Shown: in pieces, positions 5,785 to 42,763 of the stretch
Numbering within the stretch: position 1 is the first letter of the stretch
Layout of the letters: each line of letters opens with the position of its first letter
Origin: Myxococcales bacterium
GTDB taxonomy: Bacteria > Myxococcota_C > UBA6777
Assembly (NCBI GenBank): GCA_020632975.1
Contig: JACKEL010000001.1
Location: 151,983-215,982, forward strand
Direction of reading: 5' to 3'
Length of the DNA stretch: 64,000 nucleotides
Translations under genes and position numbers: made by a program
Notes under the pieces: model-generated
Database searches by the model: none
The model's input: only the letters and a program-made list of their open reading frames with translations
Told to the model about the DNA's origin: nothing

Positions 5785-6174
5785 ATGATCTCAAGCGCAC
5801 GTCATCCTCTTGTTTCTATTGTAAAAATCGTTGCCATGCTTAGCGTTGTTTTGGTGTTGGCTTATGCATGTGGCGTAGATGCTGTTTGTACGGGTGGTGG
5901 TTGTACCCAGACCTGCTCGGGTTCTTCTTGTCCTTACACATGCGCGGGCGGAAACTGCACCCAAACTTGTGCAAGTGGCGCAAACTGCAACTTCACTTGC
6001 GAAGGCGGCGGTTGCACCCAAACTTGCGCAAGCGGCGGAAACTGCAACTTCTCCTGTACAGGCGCAAACTGCGTGCAAAAATGTACCGCTGATAGCACGA
6101 CCTGTAACCTCGCTTGTTCGGGCACCAACTGTTCGCAAGACTGCGCAGGCAACGCCGTTTGCACTGCTGGCTGA
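5785..6174 (+). CDS. small secreted Cys-rich repeat protein (20 Cys, about 9-residue C-x3-C-x4/5 periodicity)
   Basis: Signal peptide ...IVKIVAMLSVVLVLAYA|CGVD (AxA cleavage site). The mature region is CTGGGCTQTCSGSSCPYTCAGGNCTQTCASGANCNFTCEGGGCTQTC... Alternative start ATG 5770. GGAG upstream. Confidence 0.5.
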   Translation: MISSARHPLVSIVKIVAMLSVVLVLAYACGVDAVCTGGGCTQTCSGSSCPYTCAGGNCTQTCASGANCNFTCEGGGCTQTCASGGNCNFSCTGANCVQKCTADSTTCNLACSGTNCSQDCAGNAVCTAG

Positions 6175-8789: not shown

Positions 8790-9100
8790 AGCCCCATCCA
8801 TCAGGCGGACACAGAGAAACCCTATCTATCGGGCAAACGCAGATCCCCATCTATCAGACAAACGCAGTTCCCCATCGAGTGAATAATCCCGTATATCGGA
8901 AAAAAACGAAGGACCGCCTATCGAGCAAGTGGTCAAACGCAGACCTATTGGACGGGCACAGAGCCCCATCTATCAGGCAAACGAAGATCCCCATCGAGTG
9001 AAGAGGCCCCATCCATCGGGCGGACGCAGAGGTTCACCAGACAGACACGAAGACCCGCCCTTGCACTAGCCCTAGTATCGGGCAATCTCTCACCCATCCT
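8790..9100. repeat. degenerate tandem array of about 11 units of about 26 bp (core CCCATCTATCAGGCAAACGCAGATC)
   Basis: Read directly. Unit copies include gccccatccatcaggcggacacagag, ccctatctatcgggcaaacgcagatc, cccatctatcagacaaacgcagttc, cccatctatcaggcaaacgaagatc and ccccatccatcgggcggacgcagagg. The array fills the whole convergent intergenic gap between 8741 and 9104. Confidence 0.6.
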
Positions 9101-13555: not shown

Positions 13556-15079
13556 ATGAAACGACTCAAAACATGGTTGTTTTGGATCGCCGCCCTCGCT
13601 CTCATCGGCGTCCTGATATGGCAATGGCGAAAGCCCGATCCCAAGAAAGCAAAACGCGGACGCCGTGGTGGCGCAGTCGTCGTTGAAGTCACCAATGTTA
13701 AACGCGGCGAGATCGTCGATGAAGGCCAATACATCGGCTCTTTGCTACCTCGTTATCAATACACGGTCTCCCCCCAAATTGGTGGACGCCTCAACCTGCT
13801 CAAAGTCCGTGTAGGCGACAAAGTCAAACCCAACGATCTCCTCGCAACCATCGAAAACAACGAAGTGGTTCAGCAGGTTGAACAAGCGCTCGCAGAAGTA
13901 CGCGTCGCCAATGCCCAATTGGAAGAACAAAAAAGCCGACTGTCTAAGGCTTACAAAGATTATCAACGCACACGTACACTCAGCCAACGCAAACTCGTCT
14001 CACAAACCGACCGTGAAGCCGCTGAGTCCGCCTACAAGATCGAAGCAGCCAAGCTTAAAGTCGCACAAGCTTCTTTGTCGCAAAAACGCTCCCTCTTGCG
14101 CTCTGCACGTGTAAGACTTTCTTACACACGCATCACCGCACAGTGGGTCCGCAGACCACTCAGCCAAGCACGTCGCCGCGAACTCATGGAAGCAGGCGAA
14201 ACCATCGAAGCGCAAGAAGAGTCAAACGACAAAGCCAAAAATGGCAAAGCCAAAAATACCAAAAAGAATGGTAAAAATGGCAAAAAGACCAAAGCCAAGA
14301 AAACCAAAGCCAAAAAGAACGGTAAAAACGGAAAAACCAAAAATGGCAAAGCCAAAAATACCAAAAAGAATGGTAAAAATGGCAAAGCCAAAAATGGCAA
14401 GGCAGCCCCAGCCAAAGAAGCAGAGCAAGAGACCTTTCGCATGGTGGGCGAGCGCTTGGTGGACGAAGGCTCGTTGGTTCAACCCAACGCCCCGATGTTG
14501 ACGCTGCTGGATATCCGCTCGGTCATCGCCGTGATTTATGTAACCGAGAAAGACTATATCCGACTTCGTGTAGGACAACCTGCTTACGCTACAACGTATG
14601 TTTACAAAAACCGTACTTTTGCAGGAAAAGTCGTTCGCATCGCCCCCATGCTCAAAGAAAGCTCACGCCTTGCGCGCGTTGAGATCGAGATCCACAACGA
14701 AGATCTCGCACTCAAACCGGGGATGTTTGTGCGCCTCCGCGTAGAGTACGCACGTTATCCCAAGGCTACGTTGATTCCACGTATCGCCCTCGTCCAACGT
14801 GACGACAAGTCGGGCGTTTTCCACGTCGACCCCAAGAAAAAAGTCGCCTCTTTTCTCCCCCTCAAACTGGGTGTCCAAACCGTCAGCACAGTGCAGGTCC
14901 TCACGCCTCTCGCTGGCCAAGTCGTCACACTGGGCTATCACCTCTTGCGCAACGGTTCGAAGATCCAAATCGGTTCCAAGGACGCGAAAAAAGGCAAAAA
15001 AGGCAAGGGTGGAAAAAAGGGTAAAAAAGGCAAGGGCAAACGCAAGAACGGCAAAGATCGCCGCAAACAAGGAGGCTGA
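13556..15079 (+). CDS. RND efflux periplasmic adaptor (HlyD/MFP family) with Lys-rich repeat insertion and poly-Lys/Gly tail
   Basis: N-terminal TM anchor, coiled-coil hairpin, lipoyl-like and beta-barrel segments (RITAQWVRRP..., VQPNAPMLTLLDIRSVIAVIYVTEKD). The insertion is AKNGKAKNTKKNGKNGKKTKAKKTKAKKNGKNGKTKNGKAKNTKKNGKNGKAKNGK. The C-terminal tail is KKGKKGKGGKKGKKGKGKRKNGK. GGAG RBS. The gene directly precedes the RND pump. Confidence 0.8.
   Translation: MKRLKTWLFWIAALALIGVLIWQWRKPDPKKAKRGRRGGAVVVEVTNVKRGEIVDEGQYIGSLLPRYQYTVSPQIGGRLNLLKVRVGDKVKPNDLLATIENNEVVQQVEQALAEVRVANAQLEEQKSRLSKAYKDYQRTRTLSQRKLVSQTDREAAESAYKIEAAKLKVAQASLSQKRSLLRSARVRLSYTRITAQWVRRPLSQARRRELMEAGETIEAQEESNDKAKNGKAKNTKKNGKNGKKTKAKKTKAKKNGKNGKTKNGKAKNTKKNGKNGKAKNGKAAPAKEAEQETFRMVGERLVDEGSLVQPNAPMLTLLDIRSVIAVIYVTEKDYIRLRVGQPAYATTYVYKNRTFAGKVVRIAPMLKESSRLARVEIEIHNEDLALKPGMFVRLRVEYARYPKATLIPRIALVQRDDKSGVFHVDPKKKVASFLPLKLGVQTVSTVQVLTPLAGQVVTLGYHLLRNGSKIQIGSKDAKKGKKGKGGKKGKKGKGKRKNGKDRRKQGG
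14237..14385 (+). repeat. about 47-bp perfect direct repeat (2 copies, period about 102 bp) encoding KNGKAKNTKKNGKNGK within the MFP gene
   Basis: aaaatggcaaagccaaaaataccaaaaagaatggtaaaaatggcaaa occurs at about 14237-14284 and again at about 14339-14385. Confidence 0.7.
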
Positions 15080-18000: not shown

Positions 18001-18231
18001 CTCACCACCATCCTTGGCCTTCTTCCGATGGCCATTGGTGCTGGTGAAGGTGGCGAAGCACAAGCACCACTCGCAAGAGCTGTGATCGGGGGCCTTCTCA
18101 GCTCCACGATGATCACGTTGTTCTTTATCCCTTCGTTCTATCAGATCTACTACCGCAACCGCCCTGCCCCCGAACCCATCGACGCAGGCACCCCACCCAC
18201 AACCTCACCCACGGCCTCACCCACGGCCTAA
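15082..18231 (+). CDS. RND efflux transporter permease (AcrB/HAE family)
   Basis: 1049 aa with 12-TM architecture and large periplasmic loops. The N-terminus [40 protein letters not shown] is AcrB-like. AGGAGG RBS. The gene overlaps the MFP stop region. No outer-membrane factor gene is adjacent. Confidence 0.9.
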
Positions 18232-20766
18232 CCCCCAGCCTTCTCGCCTTCTTCGTACCGCAAGCAACAAGAACAATCCAAACAAACCACCCAACCATGC
18301 GGTGCCTTCGACCGATTGGCAGCCCATCCGCATCAAAGGTGCGCAGTTCGGGCCTTCACAAGCCGCTTGCGAGACCTGACAGATCTCCTTCGAACTATCG
18401 CACAAATAAGAGCTTGTGCTTTTGGACTCTTCCAACCAAGAGATCGGTGCCCCTTCTTGGCAGACCCCTTGGTAACAAGATGCGCCATCTGCACAACCGC
18501 AGTCCGCAGCGCAACCAGAGCAGTCCTCACCAAAGCTACAGACACCATCGCCGCAACGCGGTGCTTGCTCGTTTTCGTTGCAGTATCCGAGACCTCCAGC
18601 CAAACTCACCTGACAAAATCGACCACTTGGACATCCATGGACCGCAGAGCATCCACAAAACCCTTCATTCGGCTTGTTTCCAGGGATCACACATGCGCCA
18701 CCAGTGACCGAACAACCACCAGCTTCGCCAGGAACACAAGGTTCCAAACAGACCGAACCTTCACTGAGGTTCGCGCAAACCAAACCTGTTGCACACGCAT
18801 CCAAGGCCGAACAACGCTCACCCACGCCACGCGCTCGGCGACAAACACACGCCGCGCTATTGACATGACAAGCCACATCTTTGCTTGCATCGCGGCAGGT
18901 GGTGCCCGCCATACAACCGACTTCACCTAGCGTAGGAGGAGGAGGCGCACATGCCCCGATATCTTTGCGGAAGATCTGTTGAAACAAACCCTTCTCACAA
19001 CGACCCGTTTTGCACTGGCTATCTTGTGAACACACGCAAGACTTCCCTACACCCGTGATGTTCATGCAGCTACCACCATTGGAACAGTCTGCGTCAACCT
19101 CACAACGCTGTGCAAAACAAACAGGCGAGGGATAACCGATATCCGCGCAAAATCCGCCCAAGCCACACGCACCATCTCGACAAAAAGATCCAGGTGTTCC
19201 CAAAGAACGCTCCAACGCTCGTTGGGCAGGAGCTCCACAAAGGCGCTGACAAACACGTTTGTTCTCGTGGTTGTAGGCACACTGCAATCCAGGGGCACAG
19301 GGATGTGCATCATCGCATGACTGCTCAAGAGCCCGACCTTTGGGCATTTGACACTGGCCCCCACGACAAACTTGGGAACCCGAACAGTCGCGATCACTTT
19401 GGCAACCACACATCCCGCTGACAGGTACGCAAGAACGACCGCCGCCGATCTCTTGGCAAGCATAACCCGAAGGACAAAAGACCCCAGCTTCACACGCTTG
19501 CAAACAACGAGAGGTCTCAGCACCCAACTTCACGCATCGCTGACCCACTGCACAAGTACCACTTTGACAAGCTCCACATGCCCCCGCAGCCACCGCCACA
19601 TCAGGAACAGAACACTTCCCAGAGCGACAGATCTCACCAGCACCGCAGTCATCATTTTTCTTACAAGTGGTTTCAGAACACGAGCCCGCCAAAGGCAAGC
19701 ATTGTTTGACACCTTGGATCGTTCCGCAAGCATAGCCCGCAGGACAAGCATCATCGCGTCCACAAGTCTGCAAACAACGATATCCTTCCGCCAAACGAGC
19801 ACAAAAATTCCCGTTTCCACCGCACTCTTGCGAGACAGAACAAGGACGACAAAGACGCCCATGACTCGCGGCTTCAGTCGGCACACAAACACCATCTCGA
19901 CACTGTGCCCCCACACCACACGAGCTATCTCCTTGGCACGCGGGGAACTCTTGCTGCTCGACTTGTTCCATCCAACTTCGATAGACATCCACGCGGAAAG
20001 CAACCGAACTACCGTCACAACGAGACTGTCCAGTATCGTCTTTGGTGCCCATCCCATAAGAGATCACACCTGCAACAACCAAACCTCCCGACTCTTGGAG
20101 CAAAACAGGACCGCCTGAGTCACCACTACAAGCACTGCGTCCCATCGCATAACCTTCGAGGCGATCCGCTTGCATCTTCAACAAAGGCAAGATCGCTTGA
20201 AAACGACGCTTCGCACCCACCACAAAAGGAGTCGTCTGCAACAGACCGTAGCCTGTCCACACCATCTCTGTACCAATCGCCAAAGAGTCCATCGGACGGG
20301 AAACAACAGGCAAAGGCTGCGCGTGATGAACCACACGATCCAAAAACAAAAGCCCCAGATCATTTTGCGGGACCTGTCCAAGCTCCGCTGACGAAGCGGG
20401 ATGCTCGATGGCTTTTGTGACTGTGTAATAGGCACTTGAGATCTCGCCATGGATGGGAAGATCCAAACGAAACTCCACGGGAGTCCCTGCTTTCATCAGG
20501 CGATGGATCTCTTGGATACAGTGGGCTGCCGTCAAAACGGTACGCCCTTGAATCAAAGCACCCGAACAAAAAGGAATGCCTCGTCGCGCAACCAAAGCCC
20601 CGACCCCTTGCATCCGCTCTGCGGGAACGCCCCCGATGATCTTTTTCTCCTGGACCCCGATCTCTTCGGGGCTATATTCGTTTGCACATCCCATCGCTAG
20701 GAGCGCCAAACCTACCAAACAAAACAAGCCTACCCAACGAAAAAGCCCGCTTCCGTGCCGCTTCAT
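18217..20766 (-). CDS. secreted trypsin-like (S1) serine protease lipoprotein with about 15 Cys-rich modules and C-terminal MYXO-CTERM-type sorting tail
   Basis: Start MKRHGSGLFRWVGLFCLVGLALLAMGC (lipobox). Catalytic triad His in TAAHC, Asp in QNDLGLLFL, Ser in GDSGGP. Repeated C-x3-DC-x2-G-x2-C-x3-G-x-C modules follow. The C-terminus is ...[36 protein letters not shown] (GC, hydrophobic span, Arg cluster). Confidence 0.8.
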   Translation of the reverse strand: MKRHGSGLFRWVGLFCLVGLALLAMGCANEYSPEEIGVQEKKIIGGVPAERMQGVGALVARRGIPFCSGALIQGRTVLTAAHCIQEIHRLMKAGTPVEFRLDLPIHGEISSAYYTVTKAIEHPASSAELGQVPQNDLGLLFLDRVVHHAQPLPVVSRPMDSLAIGTEMVWTGYGLLQTTPFVVGAKRRFQAILPLLKMQADRLEGYAMGRSACSGDSGGPVLLQESGGLVVAGVISYGMGTKDDTGQSRCDGSSVAFRVDVYRSWMEQVEQQEFPACQGDSSCGVGAQCRDGVCVPTEAASHGRLCRPCSVSQECGGNGNFCARLAEGYRCLQTCGRDDACPAGYACGTIQGVKQCLPLAGSCSETTCKKNDDCGAGEICRSGKCSVPDVAVAAGACGACQSGTCAVGQRCVKLGAETSRCLQACEAGVFCPSGYACQEIGGGRSCVPVSGMCGCQSDRDCSGSQVCRGGQCQMPKGRALEQSCDDAHPCAPGLQCAYNHENKRVCQRLCGAPAQRALERSLGTPGSFCRDGACGLGGFCADIGYPSPVCFAQRCEVDADCSNGGSCMNITGVGKSCVCSQDSQCKTGRCEKGLFQQIFRKDIGACAPPPPTLGEVGCMAGTTCRDASKDVACHVNSAACVCRRARGVGERCSALDACATGLVCANLSEGSVCLEPCVPGEAGGCSVTGGACVIPGNKPNEGFCGCSAVHGCPSGRFCQVSLAGGLGYCNENEQAPRCGDGVCSFGEDCSGCAADCGCADGASCYQGVCQEGAPISWLEESKSTSSYLCDSSKEICQVSQAACEGPNCAPLMRMGCQSVEGTAWLGGLFGLFLLLAVRRRREGWGLGRG

Positions 20767-20843
20767 CGCACTTCTCCCGTCCCGCATCCCTTGCAGGAAT
20801 TATTCAGAAAAATTCTTAGATGAGATATGCCATCAAGGAGAGA

Positions 20844-23024
20844 TTAGGAGGCGATTTCCAAAGCCACGATCTCGTCCGAAAGATGGCGATGAAGGGAAGA
20901 CTTTTGCTCAGAAAAAGCTGTATTTTTTCGTTGAGAGAGCACCAATGAGGTCGCATCTTCTTCGTACAACGGCCGCGAAAAATAATATCCTTGGCCCATA
21001 CGACATCCGTCTTCCCAAAGAAGCCGATGTTGGCGCGCTGTCTCGATGCCTTCCGCGATCACACCCAACTTGAGATGGCTCGCAAGAGACAAGATCATGT
21101 GGATGATAGACCGCCCACCTTCTCGTTCTTCCATGTTCCTAACAAATGAACGGTCGATCTTGATCGCATCTATAGGGAATTGATGAAGATAACTCAAAGA
21201 AGAGTATCCTGTCCCAAAGTCATCCATGCAGATCTCAACCCCTAAACCCCTGAATTGATGAAGTAAATCAATCGCAACTTTGGTATCTTCCATCAAGATA
21301 CTTTCTGTGATCTCGATCTTCAACCAAGAGGCATCGATCCCTGTTTCTCGAATCAAGTCCGACAAACGCTCGACCAAAGCTGGCGTCGCAAACTGCTTGC
21401 TCGAAAAGTTCACATGCAAAGAGAGGATATCCTCCCGACTTCTCATGCGATTCCACTCTGCAATCTGCTTGCAGGACTGCTCCAAAACCCACCAACCGAT
21501 CTTGACGATCGCTCCTGTCGCCTCCGCCAACGGAATAAACTCAACAGGTGAGATCATCCCTCGTTCTGGATGGTGCCAGCGCAACAGAACCTCAAATCCC
21601 TTCAAATCGCCCTTGTCTAGGGAAACAAGCGGTTGGTACATCAACACCAGCTCACCTCGATCACTGGCTCCCCAAAGATCTTGCTCAAGTTGAAGGCGCG
21701 AACGAAAGCGTTGTTGTGCTTCTGCATCGAAAACTCGATAAGTTCCAGGGCTTTCGTCTTTGACCTGACGCAACGCCAAGTGCGCAGCAGCCAGCAACTC
21801 ATCCGCAGTGGAACACTGCTCGTGAAGATAAGAGATCCCACAACTGATGCTCGGATGATACTCGAACCCACCCAGATCCACAGGATCGTTGAGATGGCCC
21901 AAACAGTCTTGCGCAGCCAAACAACTCTCTCCTACAGAGCCTGTACCACGAAAGACCACCGCAAACTCATCGCTGCCCAAACGACCGAGGAAAAGACTGC
22001 GCGGTGTACACTTCAACAGCCTTTGCGCAAGCGTTCGCAACAAACGATCGCCCGTCGAAATCCCCCAAGTATCGTTGACTTTAGAAAAGCGATCCACGTC
22101 AAACAAAAACAATGTACAGCCATTTTCAGGTTGTATACCCTGCTGACACTCCCGTCGCAGCGACTCCATAAACGCTTCTCGATGCAACAAACACGTCAGC
22201 AGATCATGTTGGGCACGCAAACTCACATGTTGATCTGTTTTCATTCGGCGTTTGATCGCTGACATCGTGCCAATCACACGCAAAGGACGACGAGCGGGGC
22301 CATACACACAAAGACCGCGAAGTTGTACCCACAAACGCTTCCCATCCTTCGAAAGAAAACGCAGCTCGTGGAAGAAAGATTGCTCACCGCGCTCCAACAT
22401 CCGGGAGATCAAACGTTGAAGCTCAGTTCTTTCCTCTGGATGAGAAAGCCGCAACCACTCCTGAAAAGACATCACGCCCGTATCCCCAGGAAGATAGCCC
22501 AACAAACGCTCGCAACCCGAATACATCTTGACCTGGTGAGTCTCGCAGTCCCACTCCCACAAGTGATCTCCCGAACTCTGCGCCAACAAAGCACGCACAC
22601 GCTGGATACGATGTTGCCTGTCTGCACCATCGCGCTCCTGTTGCGCAGCACGCAAAAACAAACGCAGCGTCTCGCTTGTTAACCACTTGAGCGGGATCCC
22701 CAAAGAGATCTCAGACCACATCTCTTGGGGGATGTTCTCAACGTTCAACCCTCCCAACAAAACAATGCTAAAGGACTGATATTGTTGGAGACACAAACGA
22801 TACAGCTTCGCATAATCATAAAAGTCATGCGTCGAAAGAAACAACACAGTAAACTCTGATCGCCCCAGTGCTTCCATCTCCTTCAAATCTGAAACAAAAT
22901 GAAGAACACTTTGGATGGCTGGGTCTTCTGGCCAACGCTGACGCAAGGCTTCAAACTCCCCAACGTCTTTCCCAAGAAAAACAGAAAGAAAAATAGAAGG
23001 TTCATAGTTTACATTTTCTGGCAT
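20844..23024 (-). CDS. PAS-GGDEF-EAL c-di-GMP turnover protein (GGDEF variant RLGSDEF; EAL variant EVLLR)
   Basis: PAS-like region WEWDCETHQVKMYSGCERLLGY. GGDEF domain with RLGSDEFAVVF. EAL domain with EVLLRWHHPERGMISPVEFIPLAE and DDFGTGYSSL. ATG 23024. It lies 77 bp upstream of the protease gene on the same strand. Confidence 0.85.
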   Translation of the reverse strand: MPENVNYEPSIFLSVFLGKDVGEFEALRQRWPEDPAIQSVLHFVSDLKEMEALGRSEFTVLFLSTHDFYDYAKLYRLCLQQYQSFSIVLLGGLNVENIPQEMWSEISLGIPLKWLTSETLRLFLRAAQQERDGADRQHRIQRVRALLAQSSGDHLWEWDCETHQVKMYSGCERLLGYLPGDTGVMSFQEWLRLSHPEERTELQRLISRMLERGEQSFFHELRFLSKDGKRLWVQLRGLCVYGPARRPLRVIGTMSAIKRRMKTDQHVSLRAQHDLLTCLLHREAFMESLRRECQQGIQPENGCTLFLFDVDRFSKVNDTWGISTGDRLLRTLAQRLLKCTPRSLFLGRLGSDEFAVVFRGTGSVGESCLAAQDCLGHLNDPVDLGGFEYHPSISCGISYLHEQCSTADELLAAAHLALRQVKDESPGTYRVFDAEAQQRFRSRLQLEQDLWGASDRGELVLMYQPLVSLDKGDLKGFEVLLRWHHPERGMISPVEFIPLAEATGAIVKIGWWVLEQSCKQIAEWNRMRSREDILSLHVNFSSKQFATPALVERLSDLIRETGIDASWLKIEITESILMEDTKVAIDLLHQFRGLGVEICMDDFGTGYSSLSYLHQFPIDAIKIDRSFVRNMEEREGGRSIIHMILSLASHLKLGVIAEGIETARQHRLLWEDGCRMGQGYYFSRPLYEEDATSLVLSQRKNTAFSEQKSSLHRHLSDEIVALEIAS

Positions 23025-23305
23025 GGTAATTCCCTTTCTGCTTACAAGGATGCAACTGTTTTTCTGAAACAAAAAGAGAGGACAATGTTGCATATTTTCC
23101 CGAAAGCCCGAACTCGACAGAACAAGATGTGTGAGAAAGATAAAGAATGAAATATCATTTATCTTTCAAGAGATAAGCGCAAATATCACTTCTTTCTGGT
23201 ACGAACAAACAAGAAAGAAGCTGCGATCTTCTGTTTGCGTATGGGATAGAACGTCTACCGTGATAAAACCTTTAGACCCTTTCCATACATATCCCCAAAG
23301 ACAAC

Positions 23306-23546
23306 GATATCCAGGATAGATTCGGGCGGACATGGAGGTCCGCCACAGATACGGGATATCCAGGATAGGTTTGGGCGGGCCTCCGTGCCCGCCTCTATCT
23401 GCCCCCGCGTAGGCCTGAGATCATCTATCCCGATCAAGGGCGAGCCTCCGTGCCCGCCTCTATCTGCCCCTGCGTAGGCCTGAGATCATCTATCCCGATC
23501 AAGGGCGGGCCTCCGTGCCCGCCTCTATCTGTCCCCCGCGTAGGCC
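23306..23546. repeat. REP-like palindromic repeat cluster: about 4 units, each carrying hairpin GGCGGGC-CTCCGT-GCCCGCC (one inverted copy GGCGGAC-ATGGAG-GTCCGCC), unit about 65 bp
   Basis: Direct reading shows gatatccaggataga...gggcggacatggaggtccgcc, then gatatccaggataggtttgggcgggcctccgtgcccgcctctatctgcccccgcgtaggcctgagatcatctatcccgatcaa, repeated about 2.7 times. The cluster sits in the divergent region between the GGDEF/EAL gene and the PilZ gene. Confidence 0.7.
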
Positions 23547-23678
23547 AAACCAAAAATATTTCAAAAAAGCCTTAAGGAGCATCCCTCTTCGTCGTATTGT
23601 TTTTTACAGAAACGAAAAGCCATCAAGTCCTCAAGACGAGGGCGATATTTTCAACAATATTTTCATGGAAGAAAAACA

Positions 23679-24836
23679 ATGTTGGATCATCACAAAGAAC
23701 CTACCCAAGACGTACAGTTAGTCCACCAATCCAAAAGTGCTTACAAAGCAGCGAACTACAATCACATGCTTGATCGAGCAAGCGAGGTAAAACAACCCGA
23801 AAAAGAATTACAACGTTTGACCACACAACGTAGAAAACTTTACGATCACTACCGAACTTTCGAAGCTCATCGCCAAGTAGATCCTGAAAGCATCCAAGAG
23901 ATGCACAATATGTTGTTGCGTATCTTTGCCAAACCTCACGATCTTCCATCGCTTTATACGCAACTTGAAGAAGAGTGCGAAAAAGAACTCGCACAAATAG
24001 AAGAATTATTTACAAAGTGCCAAAAAACCCTAGCGATGTGGACAAAAGTAAGCGACGAGATTCGCCATCGCTTGCGGCTTTTGGACTCTTTAGAGATCCG
24101 CCTAACTCTTTTTGCACAGAAAAAAGAGGCAGCGGAAAAAAATCAAAAAAAAGCGACTGAAAAAAACCAACAGAAAAAAGAACGACTGGATATTGGGAAT
24201 TGGCAAGCAAACCCCACAGACACAATTCCTGATCTCCCAGCAGCGACCGAAAGTTCGAGAACGCAAATGAAAACGCACCAAACCATAAACCTAGGCAGCC
24301 CAGTCACACATACGGCTGAATACGCAGCGGCTGCGGCCCCAGCTCCACAGTTGTACCAGTTCCAACAACCACTGGTACCTCCAAAGTTGCCTGAGGCTCC
24401 CCCAAAAACGGTTCAAGCCAAAGCGCCGTCACCCATGCAAACCTCAACACCAAGCGAGCAAGCAGGCGCAGAACGCAGACGCGCTCCTCGGTTGCGCCTT
24501 GCTTCGGATATCACCATCGGAAGAGAGGAACACTGCTTCTTTACAGGATTTTCCGAGAACATCAGTTCAGGTGGAGTCTTCATCGCAACCTATGAAGCTC
24601 TTCCCAAAAAAGGCTCGATTTATGAGCTTTGTTTCTCCCTTCCTACGGGTGAGATCATCCAAAGCGAAGTCGAAGTGATGTGGTCACGTGACTTCAACGA
24701 ACAAACGCCCGAGATCTCCCCAGGATTTGGCTGTCGCTTTCGACAGCTCAAAAAAGCCGATCAAGAACGCATCGATCAATACATCGCCAAGGAAGGCTCT
24801 CTCTTCATGCTTGAAGAAGAAGAGTTGGCGGCTTGA
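23679..24836 (+). CDS. PilZ-domain c-di-GMP-binding protein with N-terminal coiled-coil region
   Basis: C-terminal PilZ signature RRRAPRLR...DITIGREEHCFFTGFSENISSGGVFI (RxxxR plus D/NxSxGG). Long coiled-coil, Lys/Glu-rich N-terminal half. Confidence 0.75.
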   Translation: MLDHHKEPTQDVQLVHQSKSAYKAANYNHMLDRASEVKQPEKELQRLTTQRRKLYDHYRTFEAHRQVDPESIQEMHNMLLRIFAKPHDLPSLYTQLEEECEKELAQIEELFTKCQKTLAMWTKVSDEIRHRLRLLDSLEIRLTLFAQKKEAAEKNQKKATEKNQQKKERLDIGNWQANPTDTIPDLPAATESSRTQMKTHQTINLGSPVTHTAEYAAAAAPAPQLYQFQQPLVPPKLPEAPPKTVQAKAPSPMQTSTPSEQAGAERRRAPRLRLASDITIGREEHCFFTGFSENISSGGVFIATYEALPKKGSIYELCFSLPTGEIIQSEVEVMWSRDFNEQTPEISPGFGCRFRQLKKADQERIDQYIAKEGSLFMLEEEELAA

Positions 24837-25264: not shown

Positions 25265-26278
25265 CTATCGGCTTTTGCGCAGAGGAAACACCTTGGGATC
25301 TCCAGCTGACCAAGCCCACATCGAGCCCGCATAATTCTTCACTTCTTTTGCCCCCAAAACATGCAAGACAGCCACCATCCAAGCTGATCGCACACCTCCT
25401 GTACAATAAGCGACGATCGGTTGGCGAAGAGAGAGCCCATGTCCCTGCATGATCCGCAAAAGCTCTTTCCGAGAACGCAAGCGACCATCCTTCCGTAAAA
25501 ATCGCCGATAATACAATGAAACAGCCTTGGGGAGATGCCCCCCTCGTGACTCTCCATAAGGCGTTTCCCCTCGAAACTCACGTGGTTCCCGAACATCCAC
25601 GATCTGCAACTTCTCTTTTCCTGCCAAGCGTGCCACCAGTCGCTCGCGCAAAACTTTCGTAGAGATCGACCAACGCTTCACTGTCTGCCACGATGTTCGC
25701 TCAGATCTTTTCGTGGGTAAGGGCTTTGCGCGTTGGGGTCTTTTGTGTGTAGGTTTCCCGCCTTCCCATGCCTCTTTTCCCAGAGAAGCCCGCAAAAAAG
25801 GCATCCCACCATCCACAAAAGCTACGCGTCGATGACCAAGCGACCGCAGCATCCAAACGATCCGCCCTTCTTCCCCCCAGCCTCGTAATGGATCACCGAC
25901 GACGATCACCACGCGCTGTTTCGAGATCCCGATCTGCTCAAAAGACCGAACCAACCGTCGAACAGAGGCCAGTTCACCACGCCAAGGCTTGCGCTTTCGA
26001 GAAAAGTCCAACCACTCCACACACACAGAACCACGCACATGTAGACGAAGCCATGCGGACTTACCACGAACATCAAGGACCAAAGCCCCTCGACGAATCC
26101 ACAAAGCCCCCTCTTTTGCTGAGACCACCCAAGGAATCTCAGCAACCGCGATGGCCCACTTCATCCCGCCCAGCCACACAAAACTTGCCAAACCGCACAA
26201 CAAGATCGCTCGTTTCAATGGGATACTCCTCTCACAAACACCAAAGCATCGGGCAAAAACGACACACGCCATCTCCAT
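25265..26278 (-). CDS. tandem rhodanese-domain sulfurtransferase (C-terminal domain with active Cys)
   Basis: Second domain carries AYCTGGVRSAW (the CxGGxR rhodanese active-site loop). The first domain lacks Cys. An N-terminal hydrophobic segment is present. The start is uncertain: ATG 26278, 26272 or 26164. Confidence 0.7.
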   Translation of the reverse strand: MEMACVVFARCFGVCERSIPLKRAILLCGLASFVWLGGMKWAIAVAEIPWVVSAKEGALWIRRGALVLDVRGKSAWLRLHVRGSVCVEWLDFSRKRKPWRGELASVRRLVRSFEQIGISKQRVVIVVGDPLRGWGEEGRIVWMLRSLGHRRVAFVDGGMPFLRASLGKEAWEGGKPTHKRPQRAKPLPTKRSERTSWQTVKRWSISTKVLRERLVARLAGKEKLQIVDVREPREFRGETPYGESRGGHLPKAVSLYYRRFLRKDGRLRSRKELLRIMQGHGLSLRQPIVAYCTGGVRSAWMVAVLHVLGAKEVKNYAGSMWAWSAGDPKVFPLRKSR

Positions 26279-26588
26279 CCAACAAAAAAAGCCAATACGA
26301 CCACCGCTTCATGCCCACTGTAGGCCTGCTCTCTCCCCAAAGGAAGAGCAACGCATCCTCCTCTCCCTCCAACGCAACACAAAACGACGCAGGACTCGTT
26401 CGTTCGTCCAAGAAACCCCGCCAACAAACGCTGAACCAACGAGAAGTCGCTTCACACCCGCAAGGTTTCGTGCCAAGATAGCCAAAACGATCATCCACGG
26501 GGACAAAAGAACTATAGATATCAGCTACTTTTATCCCCCCAAAAGAAAAGAATGCGCACAGCGCGCCAAAAGCATAAAGGAGCGAGCC

Positions 26589-29500
26589 TTGTTGGGGTCA
26601 TGGAGACAAGCAGGAAAGTTTTGGGGCCTGTTGTTTGGATTATGTTTTTTGGGGGCTTGTTTTTCGAACGCGCCAGCTCCCGAACAACTCAAACACAAAC
26701 AACAAGCCATCATCGGAGGCCAACCCGATCTGCGCTATCCAGGCGTAGGTGCGCTGACCGTCAACCGCTCCTCTTTTTGCACGGGAACCTTGATCGCCAA
26801 ACGCGTTGTATTGACGGCGGCTCACTGCGTGGACGCGGCCAACAGTTATCGCGGAGCATCTGTGGAGTTTCGCATCGATACGCCCGATGCCAACGCATCT
26901 TCGGGTTACCAAACCAATTACTTTGTCTTTGATCCCGACCTCTTCAAAACACATCCCATCTGGAACACCAATCTCTCCAATGGCGGTGATCTTGGGATCG
27001 GGATCTTAAAACAAAGCGTCACGGTTGCCCAAACCATCCCCGTGAACTTCAACACCAATGCTGGTCTTTGGTCCAACAAAAGCCCGCTTTTCCTAGGTTA
27101 TGGACTCTTACAAAGTACACCCACACGGATCTCCGCAGATCGTAAATATGGGGTAGAGATCCCGATCGTGCAGGTCAATACGGATCGCTTTACGCACCAA
27201 GCCAACGGAAAAAGCGTTTGTCACGGAGACTCAGGTGGTCCTGCTTTGGTCCTCGTCGATGGAAAAGTCCGCGTGATCGGCGTCAACTCCTATGTATCCG
27301 CAGCATCCGTCCCTGGCGCCAACCCACCTCGCTCAAGTTGCACGGGCTCGGGAACCTCTATGCGGACGGATACTTACAGCACTTTCGTTCAATCGGTACT
27401 CTCTAGCTATGGTGATGGTCCTGAACCTTGCACACAAGACGAAAACTGCGGTGTTTGCCGTCGCTGCGGTGCCAACAAGTTTTGCGAAGGGGTACCCATC
27501 CAAGTCTCCCCCAGCATCTGTGGGGCTTGCTTGGCAGACAAAGACTGCCCTGGGGGTGGCTGTTATCGCTTCCCTGAAGGCAACCGCTGCTTGCTTCAGT
27601 GTGACACCCAAAACTGCTGTCCTGACGGTCATTATTGCACGACTGTACAAACCTCCTCAGGGCTCAATAAAGTCTGTATGCCTTTTGAAGGTGCCTGTCC
27701 TCCCCTTCAATGTAAGACATCTTCTGACTGTGGCGCAGGAGAGTTTTGCGAAAATCAAAAGTGCCAACCCAAGCCTGTCGCCCGAGCAGCCGACCTTTGC
27801 AAACCTTGCCAAACCCAAGCAGACTGCCAAACCACAGGAGGGTACTGTCTTGGCTTGGAAGGACATCGCTATTGCACACAACCCTGTAACGCTGGGGATT
27901 TCTGCCCTGCAGGATACGCATGCCAAGAAGCCTACCCAGGCATCCCCAGACAGTGCTTGCCAGAAAATGGCGCTTGCCAAGTGCCTTGTATGTTCGACAT
28001 CCACTGCCCAACAGGACAAACTTGTGTAGGTGGCGTTTGTGCAGAGCCACAAGGCGGAGATGCCGGGGCATCTTGCGACCCTGTCCCATGCAAAGAACCC
28101 CTTTCTTGTGTCTCCACCCTAAGCGGAAAACGCTGCCTTTCGACTTGCGGCGCCCCCCCCTCCAAACCCGGAAGCGCTTGCGCTGATGGGACGCGATGTG
28201 ATGCGCCCATGTCTTGCTACAGTATCTCTTCCACCCAACAGATCTGTCTCCACCCCTGCAACGCTGACGAAGACTGCAACAAAGTGGGGGGTGGCTTTTG
28301 TTACCAAAGCGTCTGCGCTTGCCAAAAAAGCCAAGACTGTGGACAAGACTTTATCTGCAACACAAGCTCAGGTGTGATCGGGGCTTGCGTCTCCAACAAA
28401 GACATCCAATCCTGCGAAAACAGCGACGCTTGCGACGCCTTCCAAGGTCAAAGTTACTGCATCCAACCCAACCCCGGTACACGCGCCTTGGGGCAGTCTT
28501 GTGACCCTCTCAACCGCTGCAAAGAAGGGCTTGTCTGCACCAAAAGCAACGATGGATATTTCTGCGCAGAAGACTGTAGCCAAACCCAAGCCTGCAAGTT
28601 TGGCGGATACTGCGGAAAACCCAACACACAAGTTGACATCTGTTATTGTGCGGAAGACAAAGACTGCGGCCCAGATTACACTTGTAGCCGCGTATTTCGG
28701 CCTTTTGGTATCTGTGTAGGAAAGCTCCTCAACAATCCCTGCCAAAGTGACGGTGCCTGTCCCCCTGGATTTGCTTGCCGTGAAGGTCGATGCCTATCCC
28801 CCACAGAACTCGAACAGTGGAAACCCGAACCTGCTCCACCCGATGCAGGCCCCGAATCCCCCACAGAGTCCGCGCTCGAAGCAGTGCAAGAGTCCCCCAA
28901 AGAAGCGACCCCCGAACCCCAAGTGGAGCCTACCCCCGAAAGACAAGCCGAGGCACCCGCAGAGATCGCACCCGAACAAACCAAACCAGGATGCGGTTGT
29001 CAGTCTTCTCCTACACCATCCACACCCTTTTCATGGGGACTTTTGATGCTCTTCGCCTTGCTCTGGCTCCCTCGCCCCAAAAAACGCGAGATCCGCCTAA
29101 AAGAAATACTCCCTACTCTGGCTTTCTTTTTTCTTACAGGCTGCCCCAATCCTTCGGTCCCTTGTAGCCAAGACACAGAGTGCCCAACCAACCAGCGCTG
29201 CCAAAGCGGGACTTGCCAAGCTGGCTCCTCGGAAACCACCACCCCAGAAAAAACCACAGAGCCCCAAACAGAGTTGACCCCCGAACGCACGCCCGAACCG
29301 ACCTCCGAGCCTCAAGCAGAGCCGAGACCAGAACCTCAAGTGGAGCCTGCCCAAGAAGCGTCCCCAGAACCTCAACCCGAGGCAGGACCCGAACCTCAAC
29401 CCGAGCCTTTACCCGAACAACTCACAGATATCGCCCCAGGCCAACGCCCCAACCCCTGCGCCCACACCAACGATCCGACATGTTGTTCTCCCACCATTTT

Positions 29501-32500
29501 ACAAAGACGTTGGGAAGCTTTTAACGACAACAACAGTCGTTTGGGCATCATCCGCATCGCGCTCAGTCCAGACGGAAAATGGATGGCGTCCGTCAACGAT
29601 GAAGGCCGCATCGTCCGCATCTGGGATATCGACAAAGGGCAACTCAAGTACACTTTTGTCGAGCCCAGCAGCACCATGCAAGCGGTCTCTTTTAGTCCTG
29701 ATAGCCAAGTCGTCGCAGCAGTCGGTAGTGATCGCGTCGTGCGGCGATGGAGCCTCAGCGATGGAACGACACTGCCCTTACTCCAAGGACACACAAGCAC
29801 CGTCTATGCGGTGGCTTTTAGCCCAGACGGTCAGTGGATCGCGAGTGCAGGCGCAGATCGCGTGATTCGCTTATGGAAAGTAAGCGACGCAAGCCTTACC
29901 TTCGAGATGAAGGGACACACCAGCACGATCTGGACCTTGGTTTTTGCCCCCGACAACAAGACGCTATACTCCGCATCCAGCGACCAAACCATCCGTTACT
30001 GGGACGTCAGCACAGGAAAAGAAACCCAACAATACAAGCTACATACCGCAGCAATCCGCGGTTTAGCGATCAGTCCAGATGGAAAAACACTCGCTTCTGT
30101 CGCTCTATCTCCCGATCGCACCGCAAAGTTGATCGAGGTCGCCACAGGAAAAGAACTCCGCTCATGGCAAGCCCACGGAAGCAGTTCATTGTACGGCGTC
30201 GCTTTCAACCACGATGGAACGCGTCTCGCGACCGTCGCAACCGATCGCTATGTTCGTGTGTGGAATGCCAATACAGGGCAGATGCTCTACCAACATCGTG
30301 CAGACGCAACGCCCTACAGTGTCTCTTTTCACCCGGATAAAACGAGGATTTTTGTCGCCTCATCCGATCAACATGTACGCATCTTCAATGATACCAGCGG
30401 ACAAGTGACACAAACGCTCCACACAAACTTCGACCGTGTTTCAAGCGTTGCGATCTCACCTGACGGAAAAGTCGTTGCTTTTGCCAACGCTCGCATCAAC
30501 AACATCCAGCTTTGGGATCGCCAAACCAAACAGCTTCTGCGCACACTTCAAGGACATACGCATGGGGTTCGCGCCCTCTCCTTTAGCGCCAACGGACAAT
30601 ATCTCGCCTCCGCCTCGACAGATCGCAGCGCACGGATCTGGAATCTTTCGGATGGAAGCCTCGTTCGCGCGCTAGACGCCCATCCCATGGTCGTAAGCAG
30701 CGTCGTACTCAGCGCCAATGGAGAAACCGCCGCAACAGGTTCATGGGACGGCAAGATCCGCATCTGGAAGATCGCTGACGGCTCTCTCTTGCGCACACTC
30801 GAAGGACACACCAGAGAGATCGTCCATCTCGCCCTATCTTCGGATGAAAGTGTATTGGTCTCTTCTTCGATCGATCAAACAGCGCGTTTGTGGCAGTGGT
30901 CAGATGGCGCCCCCCTGCAAACCGTACAAGCCAACGCACCAGTCTACGGTTGTGCGATCTCTCCAGACAAAAACACCCTTGCTGTCGGCGATTGGGAGGG
31001 GCGTATCCTCCTTTGGCAAGCTAGCACGGGCATGTTGCAAAGCACACTCCAAACCCACAGCGCCAATGTCCGCAGCCTCGCCTTCGACGAACAAGGTGCG
31101 TGGCTGGCCTCTGCTTCTTATGATCGTACCGTTCGGATATCGCGGGTCAGTGATGGAGCGCTCCTCCAAACCTTGCGACCACGCAACCAATACGTCACAA
31201 GCGTTGTCATCCAAAAAGAGACACTGGCAACCGCAGGAGCGGACGGAAACGCCGACATCTGGGACTTTCAACCCGTCCCGCCGGTCACGAGTCTGGCAGA
31301 ACAAAAGAGCCCCATCCTCGCTCTCTCTCTCAGTGCGGACGGCAACCTGATCGCAACAGGGACAGCCGACCATCAGGTCCGTGTATGGGACCGAACCCAA
31401 AAGACGTGGCTTCACACCCTGTCAGGCCCACAAGATGCGATCAATGCACTCGCAATAAGCCCTGACCAACGCTTTTTGGCCGTTGCATCGGCCGATCGTT
31501 CGATCTACGTCTGGAGCCTCGCAGATGGCAAGCTTTTGCGCGCCTTCCAAGGACAACAAGATCAACCATCCTCTGTCTCGTGGAGTCCAGACAGCAACGT
31601 CTTGGCTGTGGGTGCTTGGGACGGTAGTGTCCGAACTTGGGCTTGGCGCTCAGGACTCAACCAAAGAACCTTTCTTACAAACAACAGCCGAACCTTGAGC
31701 GTGGCCTTTAGCCCTGACGGAAACAACCTAGCAGCGGGACTTTTCAATCAAGAGATCATGATCTTTGAAGTCGCTTCAGGCAAACATCTCCGCACGCTCC
31801 AAGGACATACAGGCGGCGTAACGCATCTGCTGTTTTCAAGAGATGGAAAAAGCCTTTATTCGGCCTCTTACGATCAAACCATACGCATCTGGGACAGCAG
31901 CGCAGGAAACCTCCGCAACACACTCCAAGGACACAGCAACACGGTCCAACAAGTCAGCCTGAGCCTCGACGAAAGTCTCCTTCTATCAGTATCTTGGGAT
32001 GGGACACTACAGATCTGGGATCTTGCCAATCTTCAAATGCTTCAAAGAATCCATCTTGACCAAGGCGCCCTCTACAGCGCAGCTTTGAGCGCAGACAGTC
32101 GCTTTTTGGTTGCAGGTGGCGCAGATGGCGAGCTACGCAGCTGGGACCTTTTGCGCGATCCTCGACAACAGATCCTCGAACGTAATCCCCTCAGCGTCCG
32201 CGCATTGGCCTTCAGCATAGACGGAAACTACTTGATCTCAGGCAACGACAACGGTCTCGGACGCATCGATCGTCGTAGTGACTGGCGCTGGCTTCACTCG
32301 ATCTACAGCCACAGCGCAGACCTTCGCGCCATCGCGATGAGCCCCGACAGTTCGCGCTTTGCGACAGTGGGTGCAGACAAGCGCGTCCGCGTCGCAAGCA
32401 CCAGCGACAACAAAGAACAATTCAACGACAACAAACAACACACAGCCCCCCTCCACGCCGCAACCTTCAGCCCAAATGGTCAAACTTTGGCCACCGCAGG

Positions 32501-33041
32501 CGAAGACAAGCAGATCCTCCTTTGGTCGATGAGCACCAATCAAGTGACCCAAACCCTCACCGGACACACCCAAACCATCACGGCTCTGGCCTACCACCCC
32601 AAAACAAACTGGCTCGCATCTTCTTCGCTCGACCAAAGCATCCGACTTTGGGACCCCACCAACGCCACGATCCTCCGAACCCTTTCAGGACACACCCAAG
32701 GCGTCATCAGCTTGGATGTCCACCCCCAAGGAAACGTGCTCGCATCTGCCGATCAAGGCGGAGAGATCCGCATCTGGGATACACAACAAGGCACCACCCT
32801 ACAGACTCTCACCTCCAACGTCGCCCCCACCCAACTGCGTTTCAGCCCCAACGGACACTGGCTTGCCATCGCTTACATCGACGGGCACGTTGAACTTCGA
32901 GAGACGATCTCTTACAAAGTCTCCCACACCTTGCAACTCCAACGCATCCCAACCTACGCCCTTGCGTGGTCCGCGGATGCCCAAACAATCGCCCTTGGCG
33001 ACCAAGCCGCAGGGATCTCGCTGTTCACTTGCAGCCCCTAA
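26589..33041 (+). CDS. giant lipoprotein: S1 serine protease, then Cys-rich modules, a PE-rich linker, an internal MYXO-CTERM-like segment, a second lipoprotein-like signal, and about 28 WD40 repeats
   Basis: TTG 26589 is preceded by AAGGAG at 6-nt spacing. The track ORF from 25989 would overlap the rhodanese gene. Signal [25 protein letters not shown]. Triad TAAHC / NGGDLGI / GDSGGP. More than 15 Cys modules, then ...[36 protein letters not shown], then [18 protein letters not shown], then WD40 units ([30 protein letters not shown]... repeated to 33041). Confidence 0.8.
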   Translation: [2150 protein letters not shown]

Positions 33042-36700: not shown

Positions 36701-41019
<4,319 letters not shown>

Positions 41020-41026
41020 GAGGCCC

Positions 41027-41377
41027 ATGGAAGATCCGAAAACAAAGCCGAGCTCTGTGCCTTCCTCTCCTTCGAAGCCTTGGCCCGAACATGTGGGACA
41101 CCGCGAACAAAGAAAGCTGCGCGCACGCCAAGAGGGGCGACCTCATGTCTGGTTTGGCTTGGGGATGTTCGGGCTGATCGGTTGGTCGATTGCGCTTCCA
41201 ACCGTGTTGGGCGCTCTGTTGGGGGTTTGGATCGACCACAGATGGCCGAGTCGTTTTTCTTGGACGCTGACTCTGATCTTTTTGGGCCTTCTGTGGGGCT
41301 GCAACCAAGCTTGGTACTGGATCACCAAAGAAAGCCACCAACAACAAACCCAAAAACCACCCAACGAGGACAACTAA
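41027..41377 (+). CDS. atpQ: N-ATPase accessory membrane protein (AtpQ/AtpZ-like, 2 TM)
   Basis: Small protein with two TM helices (VWFGLGMFGLIGWSIALPTVLGALLGVWI; WTLTLIFLGLLWGC). Its position between atpC and atpB fits the N-ATPase gene order. Confidence 0.5.
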   Translation: MEDPKTKPSSVPSSPSKPWPEHVGHREQRKLRARQEGRPHVWFGLGMFGLIGWSIALPTVLGALLGVWIDHRWPSRFSWTLTLIFLGLLWGCNQAWYWITKESHQQQTQKPPNEDN

Positions 41378-41381
41378 TCCC

Positions 41382-41705
41382 ATGTTACCGCTTACTTTTT
41401 GGGGTTTAACCTTTTCTTTTGTTGCAGGGCTGTTCATCGGCGGCATCTACTTTTGGGGCCTGTGGTGGACCACCCAACGACTGCCTCATCTACGCAGCCC
41501 GGGCGTTTGGCTGCTTGGGAGCTTTGCGCTTCGCATGGGGCTTGCATTGGTGGGCTTTTATCTGGTGATGCAAGGGCGCCCAGAGCGGTTGTTGTTGTGT
41601 ATGGTTGGCTTTTGGATCGCCCGCCTTGCATCTGTTCGTATGGTCCCAGCCTCTCCACCTCGATCCCCCTCGAAGCCCCCTGAAACCTCGGAGGAATCGG
41701 TATGA
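41382..41705 (+). CDS. atpR: N-ATPase accessory membrane protein with Arg in TM helices (AtpR-like)
   Basis: 107 aa with 2-3 TM helices carrying Arg (SFALRMGLALVGFY; FWIARLASV). Directly precedes atpB. Confidence 0.5.
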   Translation: MLPLTFWGLTFSFVAGLFIGGIYFWGLWWTTQRLPHLRSPGVWLLGSFALRMGLALVGFYLVMQGRPERLLLCMVGFWIARLASVRMVPASPPRSPSKPPETSEESV

Positions 41706-42406
41706 ACACGACTCCAGACGTGCTTGTCCTTTGGCAGTGGGGACCGATCACCCTCAATGCCACGCTGCTTTGGACTTGGTTGGTCATGGCTTTGTTGGTG
41801 ACTGTCGCGTGGTGGTTGGGGCGTAACCTCTCTAGTGGCGTCCAAATCTCCCGAGGGCAGGCTTTTTTAGAGAGCTTGCTGGTTCTCTTGCTGCGTCAAA
41901 TCGAAGACGTAAGCCAGCAAAAGCCCCGTCCCTTCTTGCCTTTCGTTGGAACGCTTTTTCTTTTTGTCGCCACATCCAACCTCTTGTCGATCATCCCAGG
42001 TTATATCCCTCCCACAGCTTCGCTTTCCACGACGACAGCGCTTGCTTTGTGCGTCTTTGTAGCTGTGCCCATGTATGGCATCCAACGACAAGGTGTCGCA
42101 CAATACTTTCGCCAATATCTCCGTCCTTCGGTCTTTATGCTCCCATTCAACATCATTGGAGAGTTTTCTCGCACGCTGGCCCTCGCGGTGCGCCTCTTTG
42201 GGAATGTGATGAGCGGGCGCATGATCATTGGGAGTTTGTTGGTGGTTGTGCCCTTCTTTTTTCCGATCATTATGGACCTATTTGGCTTACTTACAGGGAT
42301 GATTCAAGCTTATATCTTTGCGGTCCTTGCGATGGTTTACATCGCTTCTGCAACGCAAGCCCAACCCCCATCCCCACCATCACCGCCCACGTCTCCCACG
42401 ACGTGA
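41702..42406 (+). CDS. atpB: ATP synthase Fo subunit a
   Basis: Conserved stator arginine region LAVRLFGNVMSGRM. Five TM helices. Confidence 0.85.
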   Translation: MNTTPDVLVLWQWGPITLNATLLWTWLVMALLVTVAWWLGRNLSSGVQISRGQAFLESLLVLLLRQIEDVSQQKPRPFLPFVGTLFLFVATSNLLSIIPGYIPPTASLSTTTALALCVFVAVPMYGIQRQGVAQYFRQYLRPSVFMLPFNIIGEFSRTLALAVRLFGNVMSGRMIIGSLLVVVPFFFPIIMDLFGLLTGMIQAYIFAVLAMVYIASATQAQPPSPPSPPTSPTT

Positions 42407-42428
42407 CCACAAAAAAGGAGTTCCTCTC

Positions 42429-42719: not shown

Positions 42720-42763
42720 GCAGAACATCCGAAACAACCGCACATTGCGCAAAGGAGCCGTTC

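Follow-up and report, generated by a model that had tools for sequence, protein, structure and literature searches.

REP-class hairpins in two divergent intergenic regions of a Myxococcales genome: probable relics amplified in place

The window, that is, the whole stretch of 64,000 nucleotides of Myxococcales DNA analysed here, contains a small family of GC-rich hairpins: six full copies and one truncated copy of GGCGNNC-CTCCGT-GNNCGCC, gathered in two divergent intergenic regions (23325-23523 and 38923-39054; Table 1). We consider it somewhat better than an even bet (a probability of about 0.55) that these hairpins are relic REP-class palindromes which were amplified in situ and have no conserved regulatory role. 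The arrays belong to an ordinary class of genomic repeats, although some details are unusual; they are not a new system.

Table 1. Hairpins, repeats and flanking genes of the two loci, with the possible decayed block, in window coordinates
Feature	Positions	Strand	Evidence and details
Possible decayed relatives: ~25-nt units CCCCATCTATCRGGCRRACRCAGAK, including GGGCGGAC-GCAGAG-GTTCACC at 9018	8790..9070	+	Repeat families D5 and D13
Left gene of locus 1, PAS-GGDEF-EAL protein	20844..23024	-	Pfam EAL 2.6e-73, GGDEF 4.5e-30; 726 aa; start codon adopted from the sister MAG gene call
Local flank motif GATATCCAGGATAG, copy 1	23306..23319	+	Upstream of hairpin L1c1; read directly
Hairpin L1c1, GGCGGAC-ATGGAG-GTCCGCC	23325..23344	.	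ssDNA fold -8.3 kcal/mol, z-score -4.2
Local flank motif GATATCCAGGATAG, copy 2	23355..23368	+	Upstream of hairpin L1c2
65-bp tandem array, unit = hairpin + linker TCTATCTGCCCCCGCGTAGGCCTGAGATCATCTATCCCGATCAA	23373..23546	+	Tandem Repeats Finder: period 65, 2.7 copies, 95% matches, score 325
Hairpin L1c2, GGCGGGC-CTCCGT-GCCCGCC, perfect	23374..23393	.	0 mismatches; ssDNA fold -9.4 kcal/mol
Hairpin L1c3, GGCGAGC-CTCCGT-GCCCGCC, one stem A.C mismatch	23439..23458	.	1 mismatch; weak fold, -4.2 kcal/mol
Hairpin L1c4, GGCGGGC-CTCCGT-GCCCGCC, perfect	23504..23523	.	20-mer search
Right gene of locus 1, PilZ-domain protein	23679..24836	+	Pfam PilZ 7.2e-12
Left gene of locus 2, TonB-dependent receptor	36701..38794	-	Pfam Plug, TonB_dep_Rec; 697 aa
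Hairpin L2c1, truncated, CTAC-GGGC-CTCCGT-GCCCGCC, 5' arm mostly missing	38923..38938	.	Sequence and 20-mer search
Hairpin L2c2, GGCGGGC-CTCCGT-GCCCGCC, perfect	38969..38988	.	ssDNA fold -11.1 kcal/mol
Orphan duplicate of the 3' arm (TGCCCGCCCC), then CCAGATATAT linker, same as after L2c1	38998..39007	+	Read directly
Hairpin L2c3, GGCGACC-ACGGAG-GGTCGCC	39035..39054	.	ssDNA fold -9.7 kcal/mol
Right gene of locus 2, ATP synthase beta subunit, opening an N-ATPase-type operon	39182..40576	+	Pfam ATP-synt_ab

All copies of locus 1 lie inside an intergenic gap of 654 bp (23025-23678), where region 23306-23546 holds four hairpins: three direct (23374, 23439 and 23504) and one with a flipped loop (23325). 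The initial annotation had spoken of three to four tandem units of about 65 bp. The period is correct, and the repeat search places the unit starts at 23373, 23438 and 23503, with the units 95-97% identical to one another; however, the array amounts to three direct hairpins and two full linkers, and not to four units. The upstream copy at 23325 is just as it had been described: its loop is inverted with respect to its neighbours, being their near reverse complement, and one stem pair is compensated, from G-C to A-T. The motif GATATCCAGGATAG, which had been placed before every copy, turns out to precede the first two hairpins only (at 23306 and 23355), while the other two are preceded by CATCTATCCCGATCAA. 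The repeat search accordingly pairs 23306-23344 with 23355-23393 (family D8).

The copies of locus 2 are likewise enclosed in a single intergenic gap (38795-39181, 387 bp). A recurrence of the hairpin at 38921-39060 had been announced, and three copies are indeed there (38923, 38969 and 39035), the first of them without most of its 5' arm. The stem of L2c2 reaches 8 bp when the outer G-C pair is counted. L2c3 has two compensated stem pairs and a loop that is exactly the reverse complement of CTCCGT. The orphan 3' arm at 38998..39007 is a small local duplication.

A third place deserves mention. At 8790-9070, where a GH114 gene and an aldo-keto reductase gene converge, the gap is filled with degenerate units of ~25 nt, CCCCATCTATCRGGCRRACRCAGAK; two of them contain GGCGGAC followed by ACAGAG or GCAGAG and look like decayed hairpin copies. 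The match to L1c1 is 16/21 by hand count, near chance level for one site, and the membership of this block in the hairpin family is uncertain.

How solid is the family itself? When the 20-mer GGCGGGCCTCCGTGCCCGCC is searched with at most three mismatches, the window yields six matches, at 23325 (minus strand), 23374, 23439, 23504, 38919 and 38969; 0.01 are expected by chance, and none of 100 shuffles reaches six. The seventh copy, at 39035, comes on top of these. The repeat family formed by the window hairpins is real and non-random. Scanning all of the window for hairpins disclosed no further member, nor did the window contain, besides this family, any recurrent hairpin with a perfect stem of at least 8 bp.

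Stems of 7-8 bp and loops of 6 nt are common to the window copies, and the loops contain CCTCC or GGAGG. The four copies free of stem mismatches fold as single-stranded DNA with energies of -8.3 to -11.1 kcal/mol and z-scores of -3.3 to -4.2. The stems covary: two stem pairs (three cells) are altered on both sides, 89.6% of the cells are paired against 37-52% in slid controls, and three different compensated stem variants occur among the six full copies. A fold of the whole array as RNA gives long-range pairing of the flipped copy with the direct ones and is not informative. By loop orientation each locus has one inverted pair, 23325/23374 (L1c1/L1c2, with a 29-nt spacer) and 38969/39035 (L2c2/L2c3), and the remaining copies are direct. 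Each locus has one copy with an inverted loop although the flank of that copy directly repeats the flank of its neighbour, and it is the same two copies that carry compensated stem variants.

The linkers tell how the arrays have grown. At locus 1, L1a and L1b are homologous (score 13, against a null mean of 3.1 and maximum of 8), and at locus 2 the same holds for L2a with L2b and L2c (scores 13-14; null maximum 9-10). The alignments between the linkers of the two loci give chance-level scores and no homology, and on this ground a unit of a ~50-nt linker plus hairpin shared across the loci was ruled out. Because the linkers are not shared, only the ~20-22-nt hairpin is common to both loci, and for the same reason the 65-bp unit is a local duplication and not a dispersed element. 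The 49-nt and 65-nt periodicities are local duplications that carried the hairpin along.

The window can also be compared with a close companion. Its PilZ protein is 100% identical to a protein on contig JACKEK010000005.1 of GCA_020633035.1, a Myxococcales bacterium MAG which is a sister assembly of the same species, distinct from the window and 99.1-99.9% identical to it over an overlap of ~52.7 kb (L185, L119, L189). At locus 1 the sister MAG has one extra unit of 66 bp, and hence four direct units and five hairpins where the window has three direct units. This extra unit carries the stem variant of L1c3 and is the sole indel of more than 1 bp in the ~52.7 kb, while locus 2 and the 8790-9070 block are identical in the two assemblies. 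Because near-identical assemblies differ by one unit, the locus 1 array gains or loses units over very short evolutionary times, with the proviso that the copy-number difference may partly be repeat collapse in short-read assembly. In these respects, that is, in the 95-97% identity of its units and in the one-unit difference between almost identical genomes, locus 1 is like the VNTR-like intergenic arrays; unlike them, its unit embeds a dispersed hairpin, present at a second locus and in other phyla.

Some familiar categories can be set aside at this point. Regularly spaced palindromic repeats bring a CRISPR array to mind, and at 38964-39000 Rfam gives a CRISPR direct repeat a weak score of 19.6 bits, below its gathering score of 39; however, the "spacers" between the hairpins are themselves 95-97% identical copies, and a CRISPR array is rejected, as it had been from the outset. 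A MITE-like element, which had been entertained, is rejected as well: there are no terminal inverted repeats or target-site duplications, and the linkers are unshared between the loci. An intrinsic terminator is rejected since no window hairpin has a T-run after its stem and the terminator scan is silent, and an assembly artefact since the array is present in two independent assemblies. We give these readings practically no credence.

What kind of palindrome is it, then? GTAG-tagged REPs and REPINs are mobilised by RayT (TnpA-REP, a Y1 HUH transposase, Pfam PF01797; PMC2817692, PMC3733652, PMC3116915, PMC6006769). When one genome per GTDB species was scanned with GGGCGNNCCTCCGTGNNCGCC, at least 118 loci (L001-L118) matched. 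Among the matches listed, most belong to Pyrinomonadaceae, Blastocatellia and other Acidobacteriota; the others listed come from Desulfobacterota/"Deltaproteobacteria", Chloroflexota, Planctomycetota, Armatimonadota, Elusimicrobia and Bacteroidota. In the family form, GGGCGNNC-CTCCGT-GNNCGCC(C) is immediately preceded on its 5' side by GTAG (or GGTG), and an inverted partner often lies at a distance of 30-90 nt. Among the matches listed, 145 sites in at least 118 loci, GTAG stands immediately 5' in 85/145 and GGTG in 9/145, and a nearby inverted partner is found in 54/145. Over the same 145 listed sites the two inner stem pairs covary, with nine Watson-Crick or wobble combinations, and the loop orientation relative to the head is essentially fixed (101 canonical versus 1 flipped among the matches listed). 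As an observation in its own right, GTAG-GGGCGNNC-CTCCGT-GNNCGCC is a very abundant REP/REPIN family in Pyrinomonadaceae, Blastocatellia and several further phyla, with an invariant loop, and its sequence had no occurrence in the literature searched. The core of the window copies, GGCGGGCCTCCGTGCCCGCC, is letter for letter one variant of this cross-phylum family.

Two Acidobacteriota genomes tie the family to its transposase. In L095 (2700-3900), an ORF with HUH and Y motifs lies between several family REPs and REPINs (Pfam Y1_Tnp, 4.1e-06); its homologues are annotated "REP element-mobilizing transposase RayT", and a search with the protein returned relatives that are all at least 71% identical, the few named ones being Acidobacteriota. 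In L193 (2960-3830) a second RayT has a REP upstream and a REPIN downstream. Because its members flank RayT genes in both genomes, the GTAG-CTCCGT hairpin class is a RayT-associated REP family.

The window copies share with such elements their form and their place, as they are short GC-rich stem-loop palindromes in extragenic positions. What they lack is the GTAG/GTGG head at the hairpin foot, which in the canonical definition of PMC6006769 (citing PMC3733652) stands 0-2 nt 5' of the foot. No GT[AG]G was found within 0-2 nt of the stem in any of 14 flanks (seven window copies, both strands), and the 5' flanks in CTCCGT orientation, GTTT, TCAA, TCAA, CCAC, ATTT and CTGT, have no consistent tetranucleotide. 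The 6-nt loop is also one longer than the 2-5 nt of the "short hairpins" (PMC6006769). The window copies are therefore filed as REP-class hairpins without the head and, judged from sequence, are only candidate RayT substrates.

The likenesses to the GTAG REPs and REPINs go beyond the stem-loop and the identical 20-nt core: the same two inner pairs covary, the copies are clustered, and each window locus has one inverted pair as judged by loop orientation. The differences are that the window copies are without GT[AG]G and mostly head to tail in tandem with locus-specific linkers, that the loop flips relative to direct flanks, that the gaps are divergent promoter gaps, and that no RayT is found in ~73 kb. 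Enterobacterial BIMEs also combine several REP hairpins and short conserved linkers in one intergenic region, with stem variants mixed, but they alternate orientation regularly and have linker motifs that recur genome-wide, whereas the window copies are mostly direct and their linkers are not common to both loci. Of the REP/BIME-type reading proposed initially, the first half stands for the hairpin itself, thanks to a core identical to that of the RayT-flanking GTAG-REP family, although the head of canonical REPs is absent; the BIME half is doubtful, as most copies stand in direct tandem and not in BIME or REPIN alternation.

Perhaps the hairpins are still on the move: a lineage-specific REP/REPIN-like population, dozens to hundreds of copies strong and still transposing, would be served by a RayT that is encoded elsewhere in the genome and accepts another 5' guide or a relaxed one. 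The core identical to RayT-associated REPs elsewhere speaks for it, as do the inverted pair at each locus and the three compensated stem variants in six full copies, which match the variable inner pairs of the canonical family; moreover, RayT subclasses with atypical feet have been published (PMC6006769). However, the stems have no consistent adjoining tetranucleotide, and the window loop flips within direct-repeat flanks where the canonical orientation is fixed at 101:1 among the matches listed. In addition, neither a RayT nor a further hairpin appears in the ~73 kb of this species that were examined (the window and, in L185, the 8.8 kb upstream of it), which contain two clean hairpin loci and one doubtful or decayed one; tblastn with the E. 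coli RayT and with the RayT of L095 found none in these ~73 kb, and the 8.8 kb upstream are free of further hairpins. A metagenome scan with CCTCCGTGCCCGCCNNTATC returned only chance coding matches and canonical REPs of other lineages, none from this species. An active population is quite possible, although on balance much less likely than relics.

Could the hairpins instead have been born where they stand? Loop inversion with perfectly compensated stems is a known signature of intra-strand template switching, and this signature is seen here, with flanks that stay direct while the loops flip. Quasi-palindromes made and perfected by replication template switching, and then duplicated, would resemble REPs by convergence. 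However, a 20-nt identity to the REPs of many phyla, including the 6-nt loop, is very unlikely to be reached by convergence, and the same hairpin is present at two loci 15.5 kb apart whose flanks are unrelated. An independent local origin is highly improbable.

The genomic setting raises another question, that of function. Both clean loci sit between divergently transcribed genes. Downstream of the beta-subunit gene at 39182..40576 there are gene calls for ATPase_gene1 and AtpR, and the region directly downstream of locus 2 (39182-46087) is a complete N-ATPase-type operon: beta, epsilon, ATPase_gene1 (AtpQ), AtpR, a, c, b/delta, alpha and gamma. Searches for known signals gave nothing: the whole window is without a match in Rfam 15, c-di-GMP riboswitches included, at gathering thresholds, a relaxed Rfam search of the two gaps produced sub-threshold, chance-level matches only, and promoter and terminator consensus scans returned nothing above shuffles and did not flag the hairpins.

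The wider neighbourhood has features of its own. GC skew on the plus strand is negative (-0.04 to -0.25) in every 2-kb bin of 1-64000, whatever the gene orientation, and AT skew is positive in all bins but three; these one-sided skews suggest strong strand asymmetry and a position of the whole window on a single replichore. A pair of paralogous genes at 18217-20787 (-) and 25989-33041 (+) encodes secreted trypsin-like proteases that have long Cys-rich repeat regions and share 34% identity over ~750 aa; in the second, the protease is joined to a giant WD40/beta-propeller protein of ~2150-2350 aa. Tandem repeats also occur in frame within coding sequences (14224-14416, 49000-49077, 53495-53566 and 5937-6064); an HlyD-like gene has Lys-rich repeats of 15/51 nt and a Ser/Thr kinase gene has repeats of 18 nt, and there are repeats of 24 nt close to the beginning of a sugar transferase gene and of 57 nt in a small ORF (129-134 aa).

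Relatives outside the species offer a further comparison. GCA_964267905.1 (L192), a more distant relative, keeps the gene order: giant WD40 protein, DUF6812, PilZ, GGDEF-EAL, trypsin, AcrB. The trypsin-like proteins of L192 and of the window share 56% identity, and the protease pair is kept in synteny. The L192 spacer between the PilZ and GGDEF-EAL genes measures 312 bp, compared to the 654 bp of the window gap, and is hairpin-free, as is the whole 22.6 kb of L192; the other relatives inspected (L194, L120-L123) have no hairpins either. Because it is absent from the relatives, the locus 1 array was inserted and expanded specifically in this lineage and is not a conserved promoter element. As for the neighbouring gene, the closest PilZ homologue outside the species (44% identical over 37% of the query), found in marine Myxococcales (L120-L123), adjoins GGDEF and GGDEF-EAL genes, and in one of these four places a DUF6812 gene is near the PilZ homologue. 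PilZ may therefore have a conserved association with c-di-GMP enzymes, in contrast to the hairpin array, which is not conserved.

These comparisons bear on a regulatory reading, in which the hairpin would be a host cis-acting device, either an operator for a dimeric DNA-binding protein or a 5' UTR RNA hairpin, arrayed in the divergent promoters of c-di-GMP genes and of the N-ATPase operon, with the repeat number tuning expression. Operators typically consist of inverted repeats such as two arms of 7-8 bp around a 6-bp spacer, a geometry that the window hairpins fit; the location of both clean loci in divergent promoter regions, the variation of copy number between strains, and the CCTCC or GGAGG within the loops agree with this reading too. 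Nevertheless, the element is missing from the orthologous PilZ/GGDEF-EAL spacer of the syntenic relative, an absence that also leaves the binding-site array suggested by the initial annotation unsupported, and the same 20-mer is a transposase-associated repeat in unrelated phyla. Symmetric compensated changes in the stem favour hairpin pairing over the reading of half-sites by sequence, mixed loop orientation within one array speaks against a loop-specific RNA role, and neither the promoter and terminator scans nor Rfam lends the hairpins an identity. We regard a dedicated regulatory device as quite doubtful.

The reading we prefer, that of relic REP-class palindromes, can be told as a sequence of events. 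Hairpins of the kind spread by RayT (TnpA-REP) tyrosine transposases would have reached two, possibly three, intergenic regions of this lineage, from a RayT/REP system that may have been inherited or acquired horizontally. The sites then grew by tandem duplication in place, as is shown by the linker homology within each locus and by the difference in copy number between strains; the repeats would have multiplied by slippage during replication or by recombining unequally with one another. As the GT[AG]G guide tetranucleotide is missing, the present copies are probably immobile relics. The flipped loops and compensated stems may have come about in situ, when a hairpin inverted or the template was switched across its palindromic stem; or, two REP variants may have formed an inverted pair at the outset, which duplication of the flanks then obscured. 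Any effect on the flanking divergent promoters would be incidental, by way of cruciform or hairpin formation, altered promoter spacing, or a 5' UTR hairpin.

Several points weigh against this same relic-REP reading. None of the 14 flanks has the head, the window and the extra 8.8 kb have no RayT, and the clean loci are only two in ~73 kb. The copies are mostly in direct tandem and not in inverted pairs. REPs tend to lie at the 3' ends of genes, so that gaps between divergent genes, where both clean loci are located, are unusual for them.

A bolder version of the story is also conceivable, although we think it very unlikely: a "headless" offshoot of a horizontally spreading RayT/REP system with the invariant CTCCGT loop would have been taken over, in the divergent promoters of c-di-GMP signalling genes and of the N-ATPase operon, as copy-number-variable spacers or insulators. 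If this were true, the gain and loss of units and the in-situ inversion of loops would change expression.

The relic-REP reading has more modest consequences. What is mildly unusual about these arrays is that their copies are headless and amplified in direct tandem, that loops flip, that both loci lie at divergent promoters, and that copy number changes at the level of strains. For annotation, the arrays are to be read as repeat relics and not as CRISPRs, riboswitches or operators, and the locus 1 array is a strain-variable marker.

Two broader points follow for the family, neither of which upsets current views of REPs and RayT. If the window copies are relics, REP copies can persist and amplify locally after the loss of the GTAG guide, with loop inversions inside otherwise direct duplicates. 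Finally, from Acidobacteriota to Desulfobacterota and Myxococcota one meets the same hairpin, its CTCCGT loop invariant, its outer stem conserved and its inner pairs free to covary, and this recurrence across phyla suggests either a very constrained recognition module or horizontal spread.
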